64,000 bases of DNA, taken from a virus. Below, piece after piece: positions 4,548 through 30,715 of the stretch. The stretch's first letter is position 1. The number at the start of each line of letters is the position of its first letter. Location of the stretch: IMG/VR virus record IMGVR_UViG_3300008266_000014, positions 64,001 to 128,000 of that record; one strand, 5' to 3'. Made by a program: the position numbers and the translations under genes. Under the pieces are notes generated by a model. That model searched no databases. It was not told the DNA's origin and saw only the letters and a program-made list of their open reading frames with translations.

Positions 4548-5594
4548 ATGAAAATAGCTTTAATTACAGATACGCATTTCGGAGCAAGAGGGGACAATGG
4601 AGCATTCGATAGACACTTCAAGAAGTTTTATGAAGAGACATTTTTTCCAACACTTGAACGAGAATCCATACACAGGGTGGTTCACCTTGGCGACATGTTC
4701 GATCGCCGTAAGTATATTAATTATCTTACTCTCAACAATTGTCGCGAGTATTTTTTCGATAATCTGGTTCGTATCGGGGCTACTCTGGATGTTATCGTGG
4801 GTAATCACGACGTGTTCTATAAAAACACAAACAAAATAAATTCACCAGAGTTGCTACTGAAAGAGTACGACAACATCACCGCGTGGAAAGATCCATCAGA
4901 AGTTGTTATAGGCGATATTGAACTGTTGTTTCTTCCATGGATCACTTCAGATAATTATGAACAGTCTATGAAGATGATAAAGAAGACTAGTGCAGAAGTT
5001 TGTTTTGGTCATCTCGAGATTGCTGGGTTTCAAATGTATAAAGGACATAAAAATGACCATGGATTCGACGCCTCAATATTTAATAGATTTGATGCTGTTT
5101 TTTCTGGGCACTTTCATCACCGTTCCACTAGTGGTAATATCACTTATCTTGGAAACCCTTATGAACTCACTTGGGCTGACTACCAAGACCCAAGAGGCTT
5201 CCACATCTTCGACACAAGCACACGAGAGCTGCAATTTATAAAAAACCCAGTAAATGTATTTCACAAGATATTCTTCAACGATTCATACACTATACAGAAC
5301 TATGATCATCTCAAAGATTGTTTTGTTAAGATCATAAACCAGAGTAAAGAAAGTGTACTTCTTGATATGCTTGTTGATAAGTTAGAGAAAGCAGACGTAG
5401 CAGATCTACAAGTTGTAGAAGATCACCACCATTTAGATCTACAAGATGAACAAGAAATAATTGAGGATGCAGAAGACACTCTTTCCATTCTCACAAAGTT
5501 CTGTGATCAAATAGACACCGATGTAGACAAGACAAGACTTAACTCGCTGATGAGAAATTTATACAGTGAAGCACTAGATTTAGAATCCAATTAA
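4548..5594 (+). CDS. gp47: Recombination endonuclease subunit (Mre11/SbcD-like)
   Basis: DTHFG, GDMFD, GNHD, GHFH metallophosphoesterase motifs; synteny. Confidence 0.95.
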   Translation: MKIALITDTHFGARGDNGAFDRHFKKFYEETFFPTLERESIHRVVHLGDMFDRRKYINYLTLNNCREYFFDNLVRIGATLDVIVGNHDVFYKNTNKINSPELLLKEYDNITAWKDPSEVVIGDIELLFLPWITSDNYEQSMKMIKKTSAEVCFGHLEIAGFQMYKGHKNDHGFDASIFNRFDAVFSGHFHHRSTSGNITYLGNPYELTWADYQDPRGFHIFDTSTRELQFIKNPVNVFHKIFFNDSYTIQNYDHLKDCFVKIINQSKESVLLDMLVDKLEKADVADLQVVEDHHHLDLQDEQEIIEDAEDTLSILTKFCDQIDTDVDKTRLNSLMRNLYSEALDLESN

Positions 5595-5600
5595 CGTCTA

Positions 5601-5678
5601 TGGGTGAATGCTAGTATGTGTTATCCACCCGGAAAGCTGCCAGACTTTCACAGGACCTAGCATTCGCCCACCCTTTTT
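5601..5678 (+). other. Structured intergenic element (14-bp closing stem with internal hairpin)
   Basis: tgggtgaatgctag 5601-5614 pairs with ctagcattcgccca 5657-5670; internal gaaag/ctttc hairpin. Confidence 0.6.
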
Positions 5679-5683
5679 GCTTT

Positions 5684-7399
5684 ATGATCTTATTTAAAAA
5701 TATCAAATGGAAAAACATTCTATCCACAGGTGATGCGTGGACAGAAATAAGTTTTACCAGATCAAAATCTACACTGATTGTTGGAGAGAATGGTGCTGGT
5801 AAGAGTACTATTCTTGACGCTCTTTGCTTTGCCCTTTTTGGCAAACCATTTAGAAAAGTCAATAAGTCTCAACTAGTCAATTCAATAAACAAAAAAGGAC
5901 TCTTAGTTGAGGTAGAATTTTCTGTAGGTAGAAAGAACTACACCATAAAAAGAGGGATCAAGCCTAACTTTTTCGAAATATATTCCGATGGTGAAATGGT
6001 AAACCAATCATCTGAAACAAAGGAGTATCAAGAGTATCTAGAAAGGAATATCCTCAAACTAAACTTCAAGTCGTTCTCACAAATAGTTATTCTTGGCAGC
6101 GCTTCGTTTGTTCCATTTATGCAGCTGACTGCTGCTAATCGTAGAGAGATTATTGAAGATCTGTTAGACATTCAGATCTTCTCGACGATGAATTCTTTAC
6201 TCAAAGAAAAGGTGTCTCAGAACAAAACAGATCTTCAGGAAATAACATACGAAATGAAACTTGTTGGTGAGAAGATTGAGATGAATAAGAAGTTAATCCA
6301 GTCTCTCAAAGAAAACAACAAAGGGGAGGAAGAGAAAAAGATTCAGAAGGGGATTGAGGTATCTGGTAATTTACAGCTTGCTTTGTCAGAACTTAAAGCC
6401 AATCAAGATTCAGTTGAGCAACTAAGAAAAACAATATCTGATCAGGAACAAGTAGACGAGAAACGGTCGAAACTAATATCTCTCAGACAGGACCTGCAGC
6501 AAAAGATCAATCATATCAATGCGGATGTAGATTTCTTCGATAAGCATGACAACTGTCCTACCTGCAAACAGTCTATTGATACAAACTTCAAACATACAAC
6601 CGTTACTGAAAAACAGACACTTCTCACTGAGTGTACATCATCAATTGAAAAGATCAATGCTAAGTTATCTATTATAGAACAGCGTAACAAAGAGATTGCA
6701 GATGTTCTTTCTATCATAGATGAAAACAACTCAGCTGCTAGGGATATTCAAACCCAGATTAAAATTTATGAAGCAACACTAACTCAGTTACGCCAAGAAG
6801 TAAAAGACTTAAGAAGTAAAAACAAGCAGATTGAAGTAGATAACACAGAGCTAGACACTCTCAAAGAAGATTTAAAACAATCAATTACAACAAAAGAACA
6901 ACTTCTTGCTGATAAATCCATACTTGATGTTGCATCGGTACTTTTAAAAGACTCAGGAGTAAAAACTAGGATTATCAAGCAGTATGTTCCCGTAATAAAT
7001 AAACTCGTAAACAAGTATCTTGCTGCAATGGACTTTTTTGTTAACTTTGAGTTAAATGAGAACTTTGAGGAGACTATAAAGTCAAGACATAGAGATGAGT
7101 TCAGCTATGAATCATTCTCTGAGGGTGAGAAGATGCGTATTGATCTTGCTCTACTCTTTACATGGAGAGCAATCAGTAAAATGAGGAACTCTGCATCTAC
7201 AAACTTACTAATTATGGATGAAGTATTCGATAGCTCTCTTGATAATAATGGTACAGAAGAGTTCCTAAAAATTATCAGTACATTAACTTCCGACACAAAC
7301 CTATTTGTTATATCTCACAAAGGGGATCAACTTTTTGATAAGTTCCACTCTGTGATCAAATTCCAAAAGCATAAAAACTTTAGCACGATGGTGAAATAA
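5684..7399 (+). CDS. gp46: Recombination endonuclease ATPase subunit (Rad50/SbcC-like)
   Basis: GENGAGKST Walker A, CPTC zinc hook, FSEGEK signature, MDEVFD Walker B; probable start at MILFKNIKW. Confidence 0.96.
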   Translation: MILFKNIKWKNILSTGDAWTEISFTRSKSTLIVGENGAGKSTILDALCFALFGKPFRKVNKSQLVNSINKKGLLVEVEFSVGRKNYTIKRGIKPNFFEIYSDGEMVNQSSETKEYQEYLERNILKLNFKSFSQIVILGSASFVPFMQLTAANRREIIEDLLDIQIFSTMNSLLKEKVSQNKTDLQEITYEMKLVGEKIEMNKKLIQSLKENNKGEEEKKIQKGIEVSGNLQLALSELKANQDSVEQLRKTISDQEQVDEKRSKLISLRQDLQQKINHINADVDFFDKHDNCPTCKQSIDTNFKHTTVTEKQTLLTECTSSIEKINAKLSIIEQRNKEIADVLSIIDENNSAARDIQTQIKIYEATLTQLRQEVKDLRSKNKQIEVDNTELDTLKEDLKQSITTKEQLLADKSILDVASVLLKDSGVKTRIIKQYVPVINKLVNKYLAAMDFFVNFELNENFEETIKSRHRDEFSYESFSEGEKMRIDLALLFTWRAISKMRNSASTNLLIMDEVFDSSLDNNGTEEFLKIISTLTSDTNLFVISHKGDQLFDKFHSVIKFQKHKNFSTMVK

Positions 7400-7917
7400 T
7401 GATATATGATCTTGTACCTCCTGACCATCCTCTATTGAGGACCAAACTTGAGAGGTTTAATTTTACTGATCCCCCCATCAATCCTCATGAGTTGGCTAAC
7501 AATCTTATTGAAACGATGGTGCACTATCAAGGGATCGGTCTCTCAGCTAATCAGTGTGGTCTTCCTTATCGAGTTTTTGTTTTGTGGTCTAACCCAACAA
7601 AAGTCATGTTCAATCCTACCGTGGCAGATGTATCAACCGAAGATATTTTGCTTGAAGAAGGATGCTTGACTTATCCCAATCTTTTTATTAAAATCAAGAG
7701 ACCTAAATTAGTCAGAGTCCGTTACATGGATTCTTTTGGTGAAGCACATACAGACAAATTTACTGGGATGTCCGCTCGTTGCGTTCTTCATGAGGTGGAT
7801 CATCTGAACGGTGTTAACTTCACTCTCAAAGCCAATAAGTTTCATTATGATCAAGCGATGAGGCAGAGGAGCAAGAGAATGAAATCATATAAGGTGCCTA
7901 CATATGAGCAAAATTAA
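7399..7917 (+). CDS. def: Peptide deformylase
   Basis: GIGLSANQCG, EGCL, HEVDH motifs. Confidence 0.95.
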   Translation: MIYDLVPPDHPLLRTKLERFNFTDPPINPHELANNLIETMVHYQGIGLSANQCGLPYRVFVLWSNPTKVMFNPTVADVSTEDILLEEGCLTYPNLFIKIKRPKLVRVRYMDSFGEAHTDKFTGMSARCVLHEVDHLNGVNFTLKANKFHYDQAMRQRSKRMKSYKVPTYEQN

Positions 7918-8755
7918 AGTAGCAGAATTATTTTATAGTCTTCAGGGTGAAGGAAAATACGTTGGGGTACCTAGTGTGTTTCTTCGCACTTTCGGTTGTA
8001 ACTTCACGTGTAGTGGATTTGGAATGCCATCAGGTCAACTTTCTACGGAACGCGAAGCAATTGTAAAGAACATTGACCAGTATAAATCGTATAATGATCT
8101 GCCTCTTGTTCATACAGGCTGTGATTCATATGCAAGTTGGGATCCAAGATTCAAGCACCTGTCTCCGCTGTTTACTACAGACGAGATTGTTGATAAGATT
8201 ATGACACTTCTTCCAGAACAGAAGTGGAACAATGAACATTTAATTATTACTGGTGGTGAGCCTTTGCTTGGGTGGCAACGGTCTTATGAGGATTTGTTGA
8301 ATCATGAAAAGATGGAAGGTCTTTCATCACTTACTTTTGAAACAAACGGAACACAGAAGCTAACAGAAGATTTTAAAAAGTATCTATACAAATATTCTAG
8401 GTTACACAAAGGAAGCACAGAGATTGTTTTCTCTGTCAGTGCTAAGTTAAGTCCGTCAGGTGAGAAGTGGGAGGAGGCAATTCTTCCGGATGTTGTAAAA
8501 GAATATGATTGGTATGGTGAAGTGTATTTGAAGTTCGTTGTCGATAAAGAGACAGATATATACGAAATCGATAGAGCAGTTGCTGCTTATCGTGATGTCG
8601 GTATTCGTGGTGATGTTTATTTAATGCCAGTTGGTGGTACTGACCAACTTTACTTTAACAACTACCGAGCAGTTGCAGAGATGGCAATGAAGCGTGGCTG
8701 GAGATACAGTCCAAGACTACAGGTAGATATATGGAGAAACGCATGGGGAACATGA
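7904..8755 (+). CDS. queE: 7-carboxy-7-deazaguanine synthase (radical SAM)
   Basis: ELFYSLQGEG, FLRTFGCNFTC, CDS, ITGGEP, FETNGT, SPRLQV. Confidence 0.92.
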   Translation: MSKIKVAELFYSLQGEGKYVGVPSVFLRTFGCNFTCSGFGMPSGQLSTEREAIVKNIDQYKSYNDLPLVHTGCDSYASWDPRFKHLSPLFTTDEIVDKIMTLLPEQKWNNEHLIITGGEPLLGWQRSYEDLLNHEKMEGLSSLTFETNGTQKLTEDFKKYLYKYSRLHKGSTEIVFSVSAKLSPSGEKWEEAILPDVVKEYDWYGEVYLKFVVDKETDIYEIDRAVAAYRDVGIRGDVYLMPVGGTDQLYFNNYRAVAEMAMKRGWRYSPRLQVDIWRNAWGT

Positions 8756-10669: not shown

Positions 10670-10709
10670 GATGTTACATAAATGTTAACTATTACTATTT
10701 TAGTAACTG

Positions 10710-10738
10710 TTGACCTATGATGAACTTATCTATATGAT
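10710..10738 (+). promoter_or_regulatory. sigma70-type early promoter
   Basis: TTGACC-N17-TATGAT with AT-rich upstream region. Confidence 0.7.
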
Positions 10739-10780
10739 AAGGGTTCCTCACCGAAAGGTGGTTTTGTAATGGAGAACATC

Positions 10781-12841: not shown

Positions 12842-13357
12842 ATGAAAACTTTATACGTTGTACTGCTAGCAGCTGCAATTACAGGTTGTTCGAGTCAGAA
12901 GATGGTAAAGATTCCGGATTCAAAAGGAACTGTGCCAGAGTGGTTTGCTGCTGAGCCAGAAAAGCAAGGTAGTGATATCATTGTCACTGCAACAGATACT
13001 TCTCGTGATATGCAGTTTGCGATTGACAAAGCAATGCTACAGGGCCGTGTAGAGCTTGCTAATCGTATTGGTGTTCGTGTTGATTCTCTTGTTCGTGAAA
13101 GCGTCAAAGAAGATTCCGGTGCCAAGATGAAAGATGTTGATCGCGAAGTTGATCGTGTATCCAAGCAGGTAACAAATCAGATGTTATCAATGTATACGCG
13201 TGAGAAGCTAACAGTGATGAAAGAAGATGGTGGGTTCCGTGCTTTCGTCATGTTGAAAATTTCTGAAGATCAGAGTAGGAAACTTTTTGAGTTGAATCGC
13301 CGCAATCCAAAGAATCGTGACGAACAGTTCAGAGAGCTGGAAGTACTTACTCGATGA
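12842..13357 (+). CDS. Lipoprotein (LPP20-like)
   Basis: Lipobox ITGC after a hydrophobic signal; VPEWF motif. Confidence 0.7.
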   Translation: MKTLYVVLLAAAITGCSSQKMVKIPDSKGTVPEWFAAEPEKQGSDIIVTATDTSRDMQFAIDKAMLQGRVELANRIGVRVDSLVRESVKEDSGAKMKDVDREVDRVSKQVTNQMLSMYTREKLTVMKEDGGFRAFVMLKISEDQSRKLFELNRRNPKNRDEQFRELEVLTR

Positions 13358-14285: not shown

Positions 14286-14942
14286 ATGCAGAAGTTCTCT
14301 AGTTACCTTCTGAACGAGGAAGAGAGAGTTAATGACACTCGTAAGACCCAGGTTGCAACAACTGGTGGTACCTATGAGAAAACAGGTAAGTTCCTCCATC
14401 CACTTCTACAACCAAAATCCAAGATCATTAGCATTGGAGCAGGGTTGGAACACACCAAGGTAGCTTTACAAAGAGGTCTTGGTGGTGAGAAGAGTACTCA
14501 TACAATCCACGATATGGAACCTAATCCCGAAGGGAGAAAGGTAAAACCAGAGTACACCAAAGCCGAGGATATCCCTCATAATCATTATCATGCAGCAGTG
14601 TCACATAATGTATTGAATGTTGTTGAACCTCATGTACGTGAGCACGTTATGCATTCCATCTTCAATTCAATGAAGGAAGGTGGTCATGCAGTGATTGGCA
14701 CACGTAAATGGAAGGGTGATATTGATAAGACAAAAAATGCAGAACCTGGAGACGAACCCAAGTCATTGTGGGTTAAGAAGAAGGGTGGGGCATCTTATCA
14801 AAAAGGTTTTGATGGTAACGAACTAAAAGAATATGTTCATGATTACGCTTCGCGTCACGGGCATGAAGTTAAGGTTACGAACTTGAAAGGCATCGCAGCA
14901 ACTGGCGTCCATGTTCATTTGCTGAAGAAAGCAAAACCGTAA
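14286..14942 (+). CDS. SAM-dependent methyltransferase-like protein with capsid-targeting-like leader
   Basis: ISIGAG motif I, HDMEP, HNVLNVV; N-terminus MQKFSSYLLNEE. Confidence 0.6.
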   Translation: MQKFSSYLLNEEERVNDTRKTQVATTGGTYEKTGKFLHPLLQPKSKIISIGAGLEHTKVALQRGLGGEKSTHTIHDMEPNPEGRKVKPEYTKAEDIPHNHYHAAVSHNVLNVVEPHVREHVMHSIFNSMKEGGHAVIGTRKWKGDIDKTKNAEPGDEPKSLWVKKKGGASYQKGFDGNELKEYVHDYASRHGHEVKVTNLKGIAATGVHVHLLKKAKP

Positions 14943-15029
14943 TAAAGGTGGACATCAAATGGGGCAATGTTTGTAATTATTTTTGTTTTACTTCTACTAT
15001 TTTATATACATAATAGCTTTTGAAGCGCT

Positions 15030-15584
15030 ATGAATATTTTTTTATATGATGATCTCATCGATAGTAATACGGTAGATGAGACAGAGCAGCTTCTATGCGG
15101 TATCTACTTTCCATGGTATTTTCAAAACTCTACCGTGCTACCTCCTGAAGTTTTTGGTATTAGTGGAGGTCCTCTATACGATTTTCAATTCATTCACACA
15201 TTTATTAGGAATGGAGAATTAAACTCTGGTAGTGTGAATCTTCCAATGAAAATTTTTGATATTGTTGCTGAAAGATTGAAACTCAACATACGGCACGTCA
15301 CCAGAATAAAGGCTAATCTTCTCACCACGGGGTTCCCTTCAAGTCAAGATTTAGATCAACAATATCACACCGATCACACGGAAGAAAGCACATATAGTAT
15401 GATTTATTATGTTAATGATTCGGACGGTGATACTGTATTTAAAGACATCAACAACAACGAACAGAGAAGAATAAGTCCGAAAAAAGGAAGAATTGCTTTG
15501 TTTAGATCTAATATTATGCACAGAGCAACCAACCCTACTCACCATAAGCGCAGAGTTGTCATTAATTACATTTTTCAAGTATAA
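15030..15584 (+). CDS. 2OG-Fe(II) oxygenase
   Basis: HTD, IYYVNDSDGDT, H, RRVVINY. Confidence 0.85.
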   Translation: MNIFLYDDLIDSNTVDETEQLLCGIYFPWYFQNSTVLPPEVFGISGGPLYDFQFIHTFIRNGELNSGSVNLPMKIFDIVAERLKLNIRHVTRIKANLLTTGFPSSQDLDQQYHTDHTEESTYSMIYYVNDSDGDTVFKDINNNEQRRISPKKGRIALFRSNIMHRATNPTHHKRRVVINYIFQV

Positions 15585-15585
15585 T
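15556..15585 (+). promoter_or_regulatory. sigma70-type promoter for ncRNA/tRNA-Asn
   Basis: TTGTCA-N18-TATAAT; predicted start about 15591-15593. Confidence 0.55.
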
Positions 15586-15592
15586 AACCAAT

Positions 15593-15764
15593 CATTTTTG
15601 AGAGTCCTTAAGCGAGGAGCCTAACCAGCGACCTGACTGCCGAGGGAAAACAATACCTCTTTCAATTGCATCTGGAAACCAGATATGTACGTGGTGCGTA
15701 CGCAAGACAATGAGGGGCCAACAAAATTCTGGCTTAAAAGGACATGGCAGTACTCTCAAAAATG
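15593..15764 (+). ncRNA. Candidate structured ncRNA (172 nt)
   Basis: Perfect 13-bp terminal stem, multiple internal hairpins, ACTGCC/GGCAGT pseudoknot; abuts tRNA-Asn. Confidence 0.65.
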
Positions 15765-15765
15765 T

Positions 15766-15841
15766 TGACCGGTAGCTCAGTCGGTAGAGCAGGTGACTGT
15801 TAATCACCCTGTCGCTGGTTCGATCCCAGCCCGGTCAGCCA
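15766..15841 (+). tRNA. tRNA-Asn (GTT)
   Basis: Cloverleaf TGACCGG/CCGGTCA, anticodon loop CTGTTAA, CCA. Confidence 0.95.
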
Positions 15842-16068
15842 TCTTAGATGTGGTGTTATGGAAAATCCCTGTGTACCAGGGCAGTGCACTGTCAATGGGT
15901 CCTCTGTCTAGCTAGCACGGCCAATACAGTTGATATAAACAAAAACACAGGGACGCCTATACAAATAAGTTTATTCGTTAAAAGCAAACAGTAGTAGGTA
16001 TTACTACTCATAACATGGCATCACACCTAAGATGGATATATACTCTTTTAAATATCACAAAGGAAAAA

Positions 16069-16836
16069 ATGAAGCATCTGTTTTTTACCTTTGCATTACT
16101 ATTCTCGGGAAGTAGTTTTGCAGGATCACAATTCGTACTCAACGTATCAAAAAATGAGGTTGTACTAGACTCAAGAGCAGAGGTTGTAAGACCAATTGCA
16201 AGTGTTACAAAATTAATGACAGCACTTGTTGTTATTGATAGTAATCTTGATATGCAGGAAAAGATTCCATATAGAGGATCAAAATCTGTTCCAGGCAAAC
16301 CAAGAACGAGAGAAGAACTCTTATCACTAATGTTAATTAAGAGTGATAATAATGCAGCAGAGTCTCTTGCAAAAAGTCATCCGCTAGGACGATCTGGATT
16401 CATCTATTTGATGAACAAGAAAGCGCAAGACATAGGAATGCAGTTTACTTCATACGAAGACCCTTCTGGTATAGGTATTAACAACCAGAGTACAGCCAAA
16501 GACTTGTCGTTGTTGTTGAAACATACTTCCAACTATTCTAAGATTACAGAGGTTGCATCCTCAACAAATTACACCCTTGTTGAACCTGTTAGCAGCAGAA
16601 AGAAAAAGAAGAAGTCGAAGGGGTATAGAGTGATTAGTGTTAATAACACCAACTTTAGACTTCTTAATGAATATGAAGAAATAAAGATTTCTAAAACTGG
16701 TTTTACTAACCCTGCTGGTAAATGTCTTGCAATGTTCATTAACAAGCACGGTGATAACTTTGCCGTTGTAATCCTTGGTGAGAGGGACATGAGAGCAGTA
16801 GAGAAAGTATCAAGAAACATCATTAATAGTTTATAG
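16069..16836 (+). CDS. D-alanyl-D-alanine peptidase (S11, PBP7/PbpG-like), secreted
   Basis: Signal peptide; SVTK (SxxK), SDN, KTG catalytic motifs. Confidence 0.9.
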   Translation: MKHLFFTFALLFSGSSFAGSQFVLNVSKNEVVLDSRAEVVRPIASVTKLMTALVVIDSNLDMQEKIPYRGSKSVPGKPRTREELLSLMLIKSDNNAAESLAKSHPLGRSGFIYLMNKKAQDIGMQFTSYEDPSGIGINNQSTAKDLSLLLKHTSNYSKITEVASSTNYTLVEPVSSRKKKKKSKGYRVISVNNTNFRLLNEYEEIKISKTGFTNPAGKCLAMFINKHGDNFAVVILGERDMRAVEKVSRNIINSL

Positions 16837-16911
16837 CCCACTTAGCACAATTGGTAGTGCAACTGATTTGTAATCAGTAGGTTGGGAGTTCGAGTCTCTC
16901 AGTGGGCACCA
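16836..16911 (+). tRNA. tRNA-Thr (TGT)
   Basis: Cloverleaf, loop TTTGTAA, CCA. Confidence 0.95.
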
Positions 16912-16912
16912 T

Positions 16913-16989
16913 CTCGGTATAGCACAGCCTGGTAGTGCGCCTGGTTTGGGACCAGGAGGTCGGGAGTTCGATCCTCTCTACCGAGACCA
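16913..16989 (+). tRNA. tRNA-Pro (TGG)
   Basis: Cloverleaf, loop TTTGGGA, CCA. Confidence 0.95.
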
Positions 16990-16996
16990 GTAATAG

Positions 16997-17079
16997 GCGT
17001 CTGTGGCGTAATTGGTAGCCGCGCTGGATTTAGGTTCCAGTCTTTCGGGGTGGGGGTTCGAGTCCCTCCAGACGCACCA
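16997..17079 (+). tRNA. tRNA-Leu (TAG)
   Basis: Class II cloverleaf, loop TTTAGGT, CCA. Confidence 0.92.
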
Positions 17080-17080
17080 A

Positions 17081-17165
17081 GCCCAAGTGGTGAAACGGTA
17101 GACACAGGAGACTTAAAATCTCCCACCCATTGGGTGTGCCGGTTCGATTCCGGCCTTGGGTACCA
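17081..17165 (+). tRNA. tRNA-Leu (TAA)
   Basis: Class II cloverleaf, loop CTTAAAA, CCA. Confidence 0.93.
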
Positions 17166-17186
17166 CGTATAAACTAACGTATAGAC

Positions 17187-17843
17187 ATGCTAGAAGACAT
17201 AGCAACAGAGTTGAAGAATAAACAAATATTCTACAGACCAAATATCTTAAGCAATATATTTTCTTGGCAAGAATTAGAGAAACTAATAAATCTTAGACCG
17301 TTCATTAATTCTCAAAGAGTTCATATTATATCTGATCAAGAAGATGATTGGAAATGGCCGTATCAAAATTGGTTGACAGATGTTAATACATACCCTCCAA
17401 CACTTTTTGAGAATTTGATTCGCAAGTACACTGTTTTTCTTTCTGACTGTTCTAGAGTAAATGAGAAAATTAATTCCATATGTGGTGAAATAGAAAATAT
17501 CACTGGATGTTCCTCCGATGCTCATTTATACTTTAATTTAGTAGGAAATAATTCGGAAAGTTTTGGGATACATTGTGATATATCAAATGTCCTTGTTTTG
17601 CAGGTAGAAGGGACTACTAGGTTTAAAATATGGTCAAAGTTCAACAAAAACAGAATGGTTGATAACTTGGGTCACATAGACCAACCACCTGTTGTGGATG
17701 TGGAAATGAAACCAGGGGACGTTGTATACATTCCAAAATATTACTATCACCAGGGCATATCCACAACAAAACGGCTGTCAATAAGTTTTCCTCACTTCGA
17801 AAGTGAGGATCTGCATCAAGATAGAAAATGGATAGAATTATAA
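17187..17843 (+). CDS. JmjC/cupin-type 2OG oxygenase
   Basis: FGIHCD..VLVLQVEG, MKPGDVVYIP..YYH, RLSISF. Confidence 0.85.
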   Translation: MLEDIATELKNKQIFYRPNILSNIFSWQELEKLINLRPFINSQRVHIISDQEDDWKWPYQNWLTDVNTYPPTLFENLIRKYTVFLSDCSRVNEKINSICGEIENITGCSSDAHLYFNLVGNNSESFGIHCDISNVLVLQVEGTTRFKIWSKFNKNRMVDNLGHIDQPPVVDVEMKPGDVVYIPKYYYHQGISTTKRLSISFPHFESEDLHQDRKWIEL

Positions 17844-20913: not shown

Positions 20914-20944
20914 CACTGAGTATAACTTTTTATAAGGTAGTTAA

Positions 20945-21157
20945 CTGAGAGATTTATCAGTATTTGCTCAAGAAGTATGGGCTGCAGAAAGTCTTGAAGC
21001 TAAACGTAGTGCAATGCTATGTTTATTAGGGGAGCTTCAACACAGGCAAAAGTTGCAACAGTTCATCAAGGAGGTAGAAACAACTACATCTTTGAAACGT
21101 CTCGACTTCTTGGCTGCTAATCTCGTGTTAAGAGACGGTGACCCTGTAATTAAATAA
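20945..21157 (+). CDS. Hypothetical protein with apparent CTG start (70 aa)
   Basis: Stop-free frame (M)RDLSVFAQEVWAAESLEAKR...DPVIK fills the gap; AAGGT SD upstream; in-frame TAA just before CTG. Confidence 0.55.
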   Translation: MRDLSVFAQEVWAAESLEAKRSAMLCLLGELQHRQKLQQFIKEVETTTSLKRLDFLAANLVLRDGDPVIK

Positions 21158-21186
21158 TTTTTTAACATGTAATAAGGAGAAATCTT

Positions 21187-29143: not shown

Positions 29144-29146
29144 ATA
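29139..29146 (+). promoter_or_regulatory. T4 late promoter
   Basis: TATAAATA. Confidence 0.7.
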
Positions 29147-29207
29147 ATGTAAAGTACAACTAGGACAACTGCATGCATCGTAAAAAAGAAGTAAAGCAGT
29201 CGTAGGG

Positions 29208-29248
29208 AAAAGGGCACATAGCTGAGAGGCGTGTGCCCTTTTTTGTTT
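29208..29248 (+). terminator. Terminator-like hairpin upstream of phoH
   Basis: aaaagggcaca...tgtgccctttt followed by Ts. Confidence 0.75.
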
Positions 29249-29273
29249 TATAACCATAACAAGAAGGACAGCC

Positions 29274-30503: not shown

Positions 30504-30673
30504 TGAGTAATCCAGTTGAAGACTTTCTCAGAGTAACGAGAGAGTTTTTGTTTGGTGACAACTCTCATTTTTCCAAAACAGAACTCACTTATTTGAATCA
30601 ATCTGTTGATGCGGTAGATCTTGAATACCGTATGAAGCAGCTTGAAAGAAATCGTAATTATCTTCGTTACTAA
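30503..30673 (+). CDS. Small protein, DUF3563-like (56 aa)
   Basis: YLNQSVDAVDLEYRMKQLE; GGAGG SD. Confidence 0.6.
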   Translation: MSNPVEDFLRVTREFLFGDNSHFSKTELTYLNQSVDAVDLEYRMKQLERNRNYLRY

Positions 30674-30715
30674 AACATAGGGGACGATTGTCCCCTATCT
30701 CAAAGGAAATATATT

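Follow-up and report, generated by a model that had tools for sequence, protein, structure and literature searches.

The window analysed here is a stretch of 64,000 nucleotides, part of a 155.5-kb IMG/VR virus record in which T4-type replication genes are present. The gp43 of this phage shares no more than 51% identity with those of cultured phages, of which the cyanomyoviruses are nearest. Between positions 15030 and 19212 tRNA genes are interspersed with genes for a 2OG-Fe(II) oxygenase, a D-Ala-D-Ala carboxypeptidase (S11), a JmjC-domain protein, a cytidylyltransferase-like protein and a SET-domain protein, a gene set which is unusual for a T4-like phage. Downstream of the oxygenase gene, positions 15593-15764 of the plus strand are the gene for a real, structured non-coding RNA of 172 nt, whose family (family A) had not been catalogued before. 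RNA position 1 corresponds to window position 15593 throughout.

The RNA is closed by a stem of 13 bp, in which CATTTTTGAGAGT (15593-15605) is perfectly complementary to ACTCTCAAAAATG (15752-15764), as had been stated in a preliminary description of this DNA. The minimum free energy of the 172 nt is -53.9 kcal/mol, compared with -38.0 +/- 3.6 kcal/mol in 200 dinucleotide shuffles (z -4.43), none of which was equal to it. A lone 13-bp inverted repeat is possible by chance in 64 kb; the RNA is accepted as real because homologues with compensatory changes exist, and these are the decisive evidence. The tRNA-Asn (GUU; ARAGORN, Rfam 67.2 bits), which had been described as abutting the RNA with a spacer of 2 nt, does abut it, but its start at 15766 according to ARAGORN leaves only 1 nt between them; it extends to 15841 on the plus strand. 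Upstream, the previously proposed promoter TTGTCA-N18-TATAAT (15556-15585, plus strand) agrees with the sigma-70 pattern in 11 of 12 positions and is, as a consensus match only, the top promoter-like site within 14900-17300. The oxygenase stop codon lies partly within the -10 box of this putative promoter, whose end is 7 nt from the RNA. No terminator-like sites were found on the plus strand within 14900-17300.

Homologues and extent of the family

A covariance model (R1) was built from the single window sequence, and 120 IMG/VR loci with the anticodon arm of this tRNA-Asn were collected and then searched with it. They yielded one full-length match (L177; 49.7 bits, E about 1e-9), which lies 4 nt 5′ of a tRNA-Ala within a cluster of 22 tRNAs. 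Blocks shared by this copy and the window copy gave patterns with which IMG/VR, JGI metagenomes and GTDB genomes were scanned, and R1 produced full-length matches in other contigs with E-values from 1e-7 to 1e-17. As confirmed by the model, family A comprises 16 distinct sequences of 146-178 nt on IMG/VR and JGI contigs, and a model built from the family (R2) finds 16 distinct sequences at 83-152 bits. The preliminary description had named homologues with compensatory changes beforehand as the test of its proposal, and many were found. Two IMG/VR loci (L238 and L239) proved to be chance pattern matches and are not members of family A. According to R2 this genome contains one copy. The phage of L242 contains two diverged copies (135.7 and 83.1 bits), the second of which (L278 1501-1667, on the L242 contig IMGVR_UViG_3300036668_000183 at 13157-13323) lies 11 nt 3′ of a tRNA-Cys and brings extra compensatory changes in the helices P1, P2a and S1 described below.

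Beyond these sequences the family was not encountered. A set of 100 other loci, among them the T4 tRNA/rnaC/rnaD region, had no match to R2, and neither had 41 other phage records with the same tRNA-Asn arm. Searched by blastn, 50,697 GenBank phage records contained nothing similar to the window copy or to any of three further members, and IMG/VR had no exact match to a 25-mer taken from the 3′ end of the tRNA-Asn. Synteny via the upstream 2OG-Fe(II) oxygenase revealed no close relatives in IMG/VR, the nearest proteins being 38% identical. Contigs with an identical oxygenase come from nearly the same phage, with 0-1 differences in 561 nt, and are for that reason useless for covariation. JGI samples containing this phage include 3300008339, 3300008116 and 3300008450. 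In one of these environmental copies (L015, position 757, corresponding to window position 15756) a T to G change at RNA position 164, the sole difference in 561 nt, turns the invariant pair A9-U164 of the closing stem into A.G. Relatives of the DNA polymerase (nine close and 80 more distant) lie mostly on short contigs, and R1 found nothing in 24 records of such relatives. Among 185,579 prokaryote genomes 26 pattern matches were obtained, one of which was confirmed by the model; it lies on a 5.9-kb phage-like contig in a Bacteroidota MAG. As the prokaryote genomes gave only this one phage-like contig, family A is regarded as phage-specific, rare and so far uncultured. Its carriers are uncultured T4-like, mostly freshwater phages, and one of the carrier contigs encodes a T4-type RNase H.

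Covariation and the knotted fold

Covariation was counted on an alignment (A6) with a structure which was written by hand from the covariation and comprises 53 pairs and 688 pair cells. Canonical pairs fill 96.2% of these cells, compared with 30-44% if the partners are slid by 1-3 columns. Both sides change in 37 of the 53 pairs (134 cells, against 9-16 cells in the slid controls), counts which are inflated by shared ancestry in a small family made up of a few clades. None of 500 shuffles matched any of the covariation measures, and the result was reproduced on the R2 alignment (A8). Altogether, eight helices have covariation support. By our own count about 39 cells hold G-U pairs, among them the invariant G50-U153; as these would become A-C mismatches on the other strand, the folded strand is the plus strand.

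All helices are given here on this strand. The closing stem P1 (15593-15605/15752-15764; RNA positions 1-13/160-172) is 94% paired, and 8 of its 13 pairs change on both sides. Its inner part, GAGAGU/ACUCUC, is near-invariant in all 16 sequences (with a single G-U in L278) and its outer pairs covary; across the family P1 is 13-17 bp long. It is followed by the 5′ strand of P2, CCU (15606-15608; 14-16), which pairs with AGG (15739-15741; 147-149) and is 100% paired, pair 16-147 being G-C in 11 sequences and U-A in five. A conserved, purine-rich joiner, UAAGCGAGG (15609-15617; RRRCRARR in the family), is apparently unpaired according to the alignments. It leads into the mini-hairpin P2a (15618-15630; stem 26-28/36-38), whose anticodon-loop-like loop of 7 nt reads CUAACCA (15621-15627) and whose stem has double changes in all three pairs; pair 26-38 of the window copy is A.G.

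The next hairpin, S1 (15632-15645), belongs to an H-type pseudoknot. In it CCU (15632-15634) pairs with AGG (15643-15645; together 40-42/51-53), with all cells paired; pair 42-51 is U-A in 14 sequences and A-U in two, and pair 41-52 is C-G in 15 and U-A in one. The loop of S1 (15635-15642) contains the 5′ strand of S2, ACUGCCG (15636-15642; 44-50), which pairs with the downstream strand UGGCAGU (15745-15751; 153-159), and loop 1 is short, as in the H-type, consisting of the one invariant nucleotide G43. S2 is 100% paired, has double changes in three of its seven pairs (A-U/G-C, G-C/A-U and C-G/U-A) and occurs in the versions ACUGCCG/UGGCAGU, ACUGUCG/UGACAGU, GCUAUCG/UGAUAGC and GCUGUCG/UGACAGC. 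Between its two strands lies a variable arm (15656-15715) which, according to the covariation counts, consists of P3 (15656-15659/15712-15715; 64-67/120-123), P3a (15666-15669/15702-15705) and the hairpins hp1 (15670-15684) and hp2 (15687-15701; stem 95-99/105-109, loop UGGUG). The arm is followed by the hairpin P5 (15716-15734; 124-128/138-142), in which four of five pairs change on both sides and 99% are paired, and then by the conserved joiner UAAA.

The covariation-supported order of helices is thus P1, P2, P2a, S1, S2, S1′, arm, P5, P2′, S2′, P1′. In the knotted core P2 and S1, each of 3 bp, both cross the 7-bp S2, and P1 encloses the whole and abuts S2, on which it is stacked as one long duplex. 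About 40 positions of the core are near-invariant, and near-invariance is also seen in the joiners. The pseudoknot ACTGCC/GGCAGT, which had been put forward as a possibility, corresponds to S2, i.e., stem 2 of the H-type pseudoknot; three of its seven pairs covary and it crosses two covarying helices. As two supported helices thus cross a third one, the pseudoknot is considered real. P2 and S1 are absent from both search models (R1 and R2). Since they nevertheless are 100% paired and covary, the knot is no alignment artefact.

Most of the helices that had been proposed from the letters alone recur in this fold. Covariation supports the closing stem, CCT/AGG (the outer part of CCTT/AAGG), CCTC/GAGG, TTGC/GCAA, ATCTGG/CCAGAT and GTACG/CGTAC, but not AAGC/GCTT, because the GC of GCTT sits in the covarying hairpin at 15716-15734. 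Two hairpins of the minimum free energy structure, CCUU-AAGC-GAGG and CAG-CGAC-CUG (14-25 and 34-43), are not conserved in the homologues. No ORF is conserved on either strand, the longest ORFs of the members differing in frame, place and length; the absence of a plausible plus-strand ORF had likewise been noted before.

A tertiary contact may be added to this fold. In every member the P2a loop (pattern YUNAYYA) and the apical loop of hp2 are complementary, in the three versions ACCA/UGGU, AUCA/UGAU and UGACUA/UAGUCA and with short runs of 3-6 nt. A kissing contact between this U-turn-like loop of 7 nt and the tip of the variable arm is rated as probable. The control in which the loops were swapped was not clean, as the loops of one clade also complement the loop of another clade, and a column-wise count of the loop-loop pairs failed as the loops are aligned in different registers.

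Surroundings in tRNA arrays and a second structured element

Nearly all members of family A (15 of 16) are located in phage tRNA arrays and on the tRNA strand. In ten of the 16 a tRNA starts 1-16 nt downstream of the RNA, and several members have tRNAs on both sides or are separated from the next tRNA by 90 to more than 600 nt. In one lineage the fetched sequence contains no tRNA on either side of the RNA. Five of the 16 members (L221, L225, L226, L237 and L222; not the window copy) start -2 to +5 nt from the 3′ end of an upstream tRNA, and in three of these five P1 is extended to pair with the GCCA end of that tRNA. The spacing between the upstream CCA and the conserved core is 5-12 nt. Where no tRNA lies upstream, the members have a -10-like box just 5′ of the RNA, often GATATATA, and in some of them the T-run of a preceding terminator is seen. 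On the basis of these boxes, and of the ten members ending at most 16 nt from a tRNA, it is plausible that the RNA of this phage is transcribed from the putative promoter and that its 3′ end is made by 5′ processing of the tRNA, as the preliminary description had suggested. Clustering of the neighbourhoods across all loci revealed no protein common to all of them, and no genes for Ro60/TROVE, RtcB or RNase III were found in this phage. Owing to both of these results no partner is indicated.

The box GATATATA(C/G) lies 4-8 nt 5′ of family A RNAs without upstream tRNA, as in L177 (about 5285-5293), L227, L230 and L233, and also occurs at window positions 16031-16041, 5′ of the peptidase gene. 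Possibly these phages use it as a -10 element of their own. In the 27-tRNA array of L226, the 87 nt between tRNA-Cys and tRNA-Ala (634-720) give a weak, sub-threshold, tRNA-Sec-like match to Rfam (23 bits) and could represent an unusual tRNA or a further RNA of the array. Elsewhere in these tRNA arrays there are several unexplained gaps of 200-500 nt.

On the other side of tRNA-Asn lies a second structured RNA, element B (15839-16036, plus strand; 198 nt), with a z of -4.8, homologues and a covarying closing stem. This stem has about 21 bp and begins within the NCCA end of the tRNA that precedes it, here tRNA-Asn; double changes were found in 14 of its pairs and it is 98.8% paired. Homologues of element B were found with its own model (R3) in five other contigs, all of which also carry family A. 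In L241 and L242 element B is located 3 nt 5′ of family A, the order being tRNA-Gly, B, A, tRNA-Asp. Element B has no Rfam match. As R2 gives no match to it, the two families are regarded as distinct. The 3′ strand of its closing stem (16014-16035) coincides with the beginning of a 273-aa Peptidase_S11 ORF (16015-16836). As element B occupies this upstream stretch, the true start of the peptidase gene is probably not 16015 but 16069, where an ATG is preceded by AAAGGA; the resulting 255-aa form is also called by one public annotation.

Relation to known RNAs and possible role

Of the 4227 models of Rfam 15, only those of tRNAs pass their gathering score in the window, and even at E ≤ 10 there is nothing over 15593-15764 or over the homologues in L226 and L241. 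This agrees with the proposal that the family is undescribed, and the overall reading as a discrete phage ncRNA of a new family is supported. Family A is a new family of a general kind, phage tRNA-island RNAs, that is already known. The T4 RNAs rnaC (species 1, 139 nt) and rnaD (species 2, 119 nt) are, like family A, small stable RNAs encoded in a tRNA cluster on the tRNA strand, and their function is still not known (PMC9697503). Indeed, rnaD and rnaC come directly after tRNA-Arg, rnaD beginning 1 nt behind it, just as the family A RNA abuts tRNA-Asn on the same strand. The analogy to T4 that had been drawn earlier thus stands for the position but not for homology, as R2 gave no match in the T4 locus at 68-76 kb (L011; tRNA/rnaC/rnaD) at E ≤ 1. 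Moreover, the 3′ end of rnaC is a tRNA-like T arm (GGGUUCGAAUCCC), whereas 15593-15764 contains no T arm of the GTTCRANYC type, and the fold of rnaD is no better than that of shuffles (z -0.8), whereas family A forms a covarying double pseudoknot.

The phage RNAs ROOL and GOLLD, which often occur near tRNA islands, form RNA-only cages (PMC12286853). They share with family A that they are phage-encoded, lie beside or among tRNA genes, contain multiple pseudoknots and have neither a known partner nor a known function. However, they measure 500 to more than 800 nt compared with the 146-178 nt of family A, which has no Rfam match. The manA RNA occurs in phages and has a fold with pseudoknots. This motif (RF01745), which is shorter than 200 nt, was described to form higher-order RNA-only assemblies (preprint 10.64898/2026.07.01.735769). 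Its likeness to family A is one of kind only; there is no Rfam match and no resemblance in sequence was seen. Theta ribozymes are minimal HDV-like ribozymes and much smaller than about 170 nt. In gut phages their cleavage site is located within 5 nt of tRNA 3′ ends, and a help in the maturation of tRNA ends has been proposed for these HDV-like ribozymes (PMC10879173). Like family A they are small, pseudoknotted and next to phage tRNA genes; they cleave, however, at their own 5′ end and 3′ of tRNAs, whereas family A lies mostly 5′ of a tRNA and has a different helix order. An HDV-like or theta identity is not supported, as the nested double pseudoknot with the order P1-P2-P3-P1′-P4-P2′ is not present and no HDV-type Rfam family matches. 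Several further identities were rejected. GAGAGUCC resembles CR-I of RNase P RNA (GGAAAGUCC) only superficially, with no RNase P family matching at E ≤ 10 and a differing helix order. Family A is branched and pseudoknotted and not, as 6S RNA, a long rod with a central bubble, and it has no 6S match in Rfam. Judged by motif and helix order, readings as group I intron, glmS, T-box or tRNA mimic were dropped too, with no model matching and a different topology.

On balance, we lean towards a stable RNA which is co-transcribed with the tRNAs, freed by tRNA maturation and active in trans, and hold this joint reading with moderate confidence. The RNA would be transcribed together with the phage tRNAs, in this phage from its own sigma-70-like putative promoter and as first gene of the unit. 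A cut by RNase P at the 5′ end of the next tRNA would then produce its 3′ side, and the long P1 would serve as a block to exonucleases, although it could also be a site for RNase III. As a folded particle the freed RNA might bind a protein or an RNA of the translation, tRNA or defence sphere. Alternatively, it may self-assemble, as has been proposed for other RNAs of phage tRNA islands. Conservation at this level is usual for ribozymes, aptamers and protein-binding RNAs, and it is a counterpoint to an action in trans that a core with a knot and joiners that hardly vary would be just as expected of the first two of these. Further points against this reading are that no partner is indicated by the genes and that the L015 copy breaks an invariant pair of P1.

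A new class of ribozyme with a theta-like job, i.e., a catalytic or self-cleaving RNA which cuts phage tRNA precursors, would fit the knotted core with its near-invariant joiner nucleotides. It would also fit the five members that start -2 to +5 nt from an upstream CCA and the ten that end within 16 nt of a tRNA, given that theta ribozymes cleave within 5 nt of phage tRNA 3′ ends (PMC10879173). However, the known ribozyme families give no match even at E ≤ 10, and the order P1, P2, S2 ... P2′, S2′, P1′ is unlike the nested double pseudoknot of HDV-like ribozymes. The distance between the upstream CCA and the core varies between 5 and 12 nt, the sequence upstream of most members is promoter-like and not a tRNA, and the tRNAs of these arrays are equally close together without any such element. 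We therefore regard a ribozyme as quite unlikely. That there is no RNA gene at all, but an accidental inverted repeat, a mobile DNA of the MITE type or a gene for a small protein, could be argued from the perfect terminal inverted repeats of 13 bp, which if alone may arise by chance in 64 kb, and from the differing places in different tRNA arrays. It is nevertheless extremely improbable, as covariation is seen in the internal helices and G-U pairs are retained on just one of the strands. Furthermore, the outer sequence of P1 is not conserved, the genome contains a single copy with no visible target-site duplication, and a conserved ORF is missing.

The RNA could also be a cis-acting module of the tRNA transcript which has no function once it is released, such as a structured 5′ cap or spacer to stabilise the operon RNA, an insulator against misfolding of neighbouring tRNAs or an entry site for RNase III or RNase E. 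Several members, including the window copy, apparently are the first element after promoter-like sequence, the 13-17 bp of P1 form a long duplex with S2, and the pairing of P1 with an upstream GCCA end in three members resembles the 21-bp stem of element B. A hairpin alone would, however, be enough for a stabiliser or a cleavage site, whereas here a knotted core with about 40 near-invariant positions is kept across phages with distant gp43 relatives. As one phage carries two diverged copies and one lineage lacks a tRNA on either side in the fetched sequence, a purely cis-acting module appears unlikely. The closing P1, the multi-helix junction, the pseudoknots and the conserved joiners, together with the frequent location between promoter-like sequence and the first tRNA, would also suit a riboswitch-like aptamer that senses a ligand or a tRNA and controls transcription or processing of the downstream tRNAs. 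This is very improbable, as no expression platform or terminator follows the RNA (with no terminator-like site on the plus strand within 14900-17300), several members are flanked by tRNAs on both sides or have the next tRNA at a distance of 90 to more than 600 nt, and riboswitch families give no match.

Compared with the action in trans outlined above, a more far-reaching idea is that family A, possibly together with element B, represents a new class of RNA machine for the phage tRNA supply. Such a machine could be a ribozyme trimming tRNA precursors or an RNA-only particle which binds or shields phage tRNAs or a host nuclease targeting tRNAs. We consider this rather doubtful. If it were true, T4-type phages would carry RNA-based accessories for the takeover of translation beyond tRNAs and tmRNA. 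Phage tRNA clusters are now read as codon-usage or anti-defence cargo, and the small stable RNAs of the T4 cluster have been known for decades and are unexplained. To these the present analysis adds an elaborate, well-supported family and a companion in the same niche, from an uncultured T4-like branch. This supports the idea of tRNA islands being general homes for functional phage RNAs, and with its compact size of about 170 nt and its defined fold the RNA is a target for structural and biochemical work. It does not change a paradigm, as new families of structured RNAs without a known function turn up regularly and family A is rare.

Further RNA genes or candidates were seen in these phages. 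A permuted (two-piece) tmRNA is called by ARAGORN in this phage outside the window (genome G000, 7636-8024; tag ANDSEYALAA), and another one in a second carrier of family A (L241, 11401-11755; tag ANDEQFALAA). ORF-free gaps with strong folds occur in the window at 30504-30715, 29144-29273, 20914-21186, 1034-1128 and 10670-10768, and a further one at genome positions 5672-6011. In a quick screen against mononucleotide shuffles these gaps reached z values of -3 to -4.8, and they may be terminators, leaders or more RNAs.
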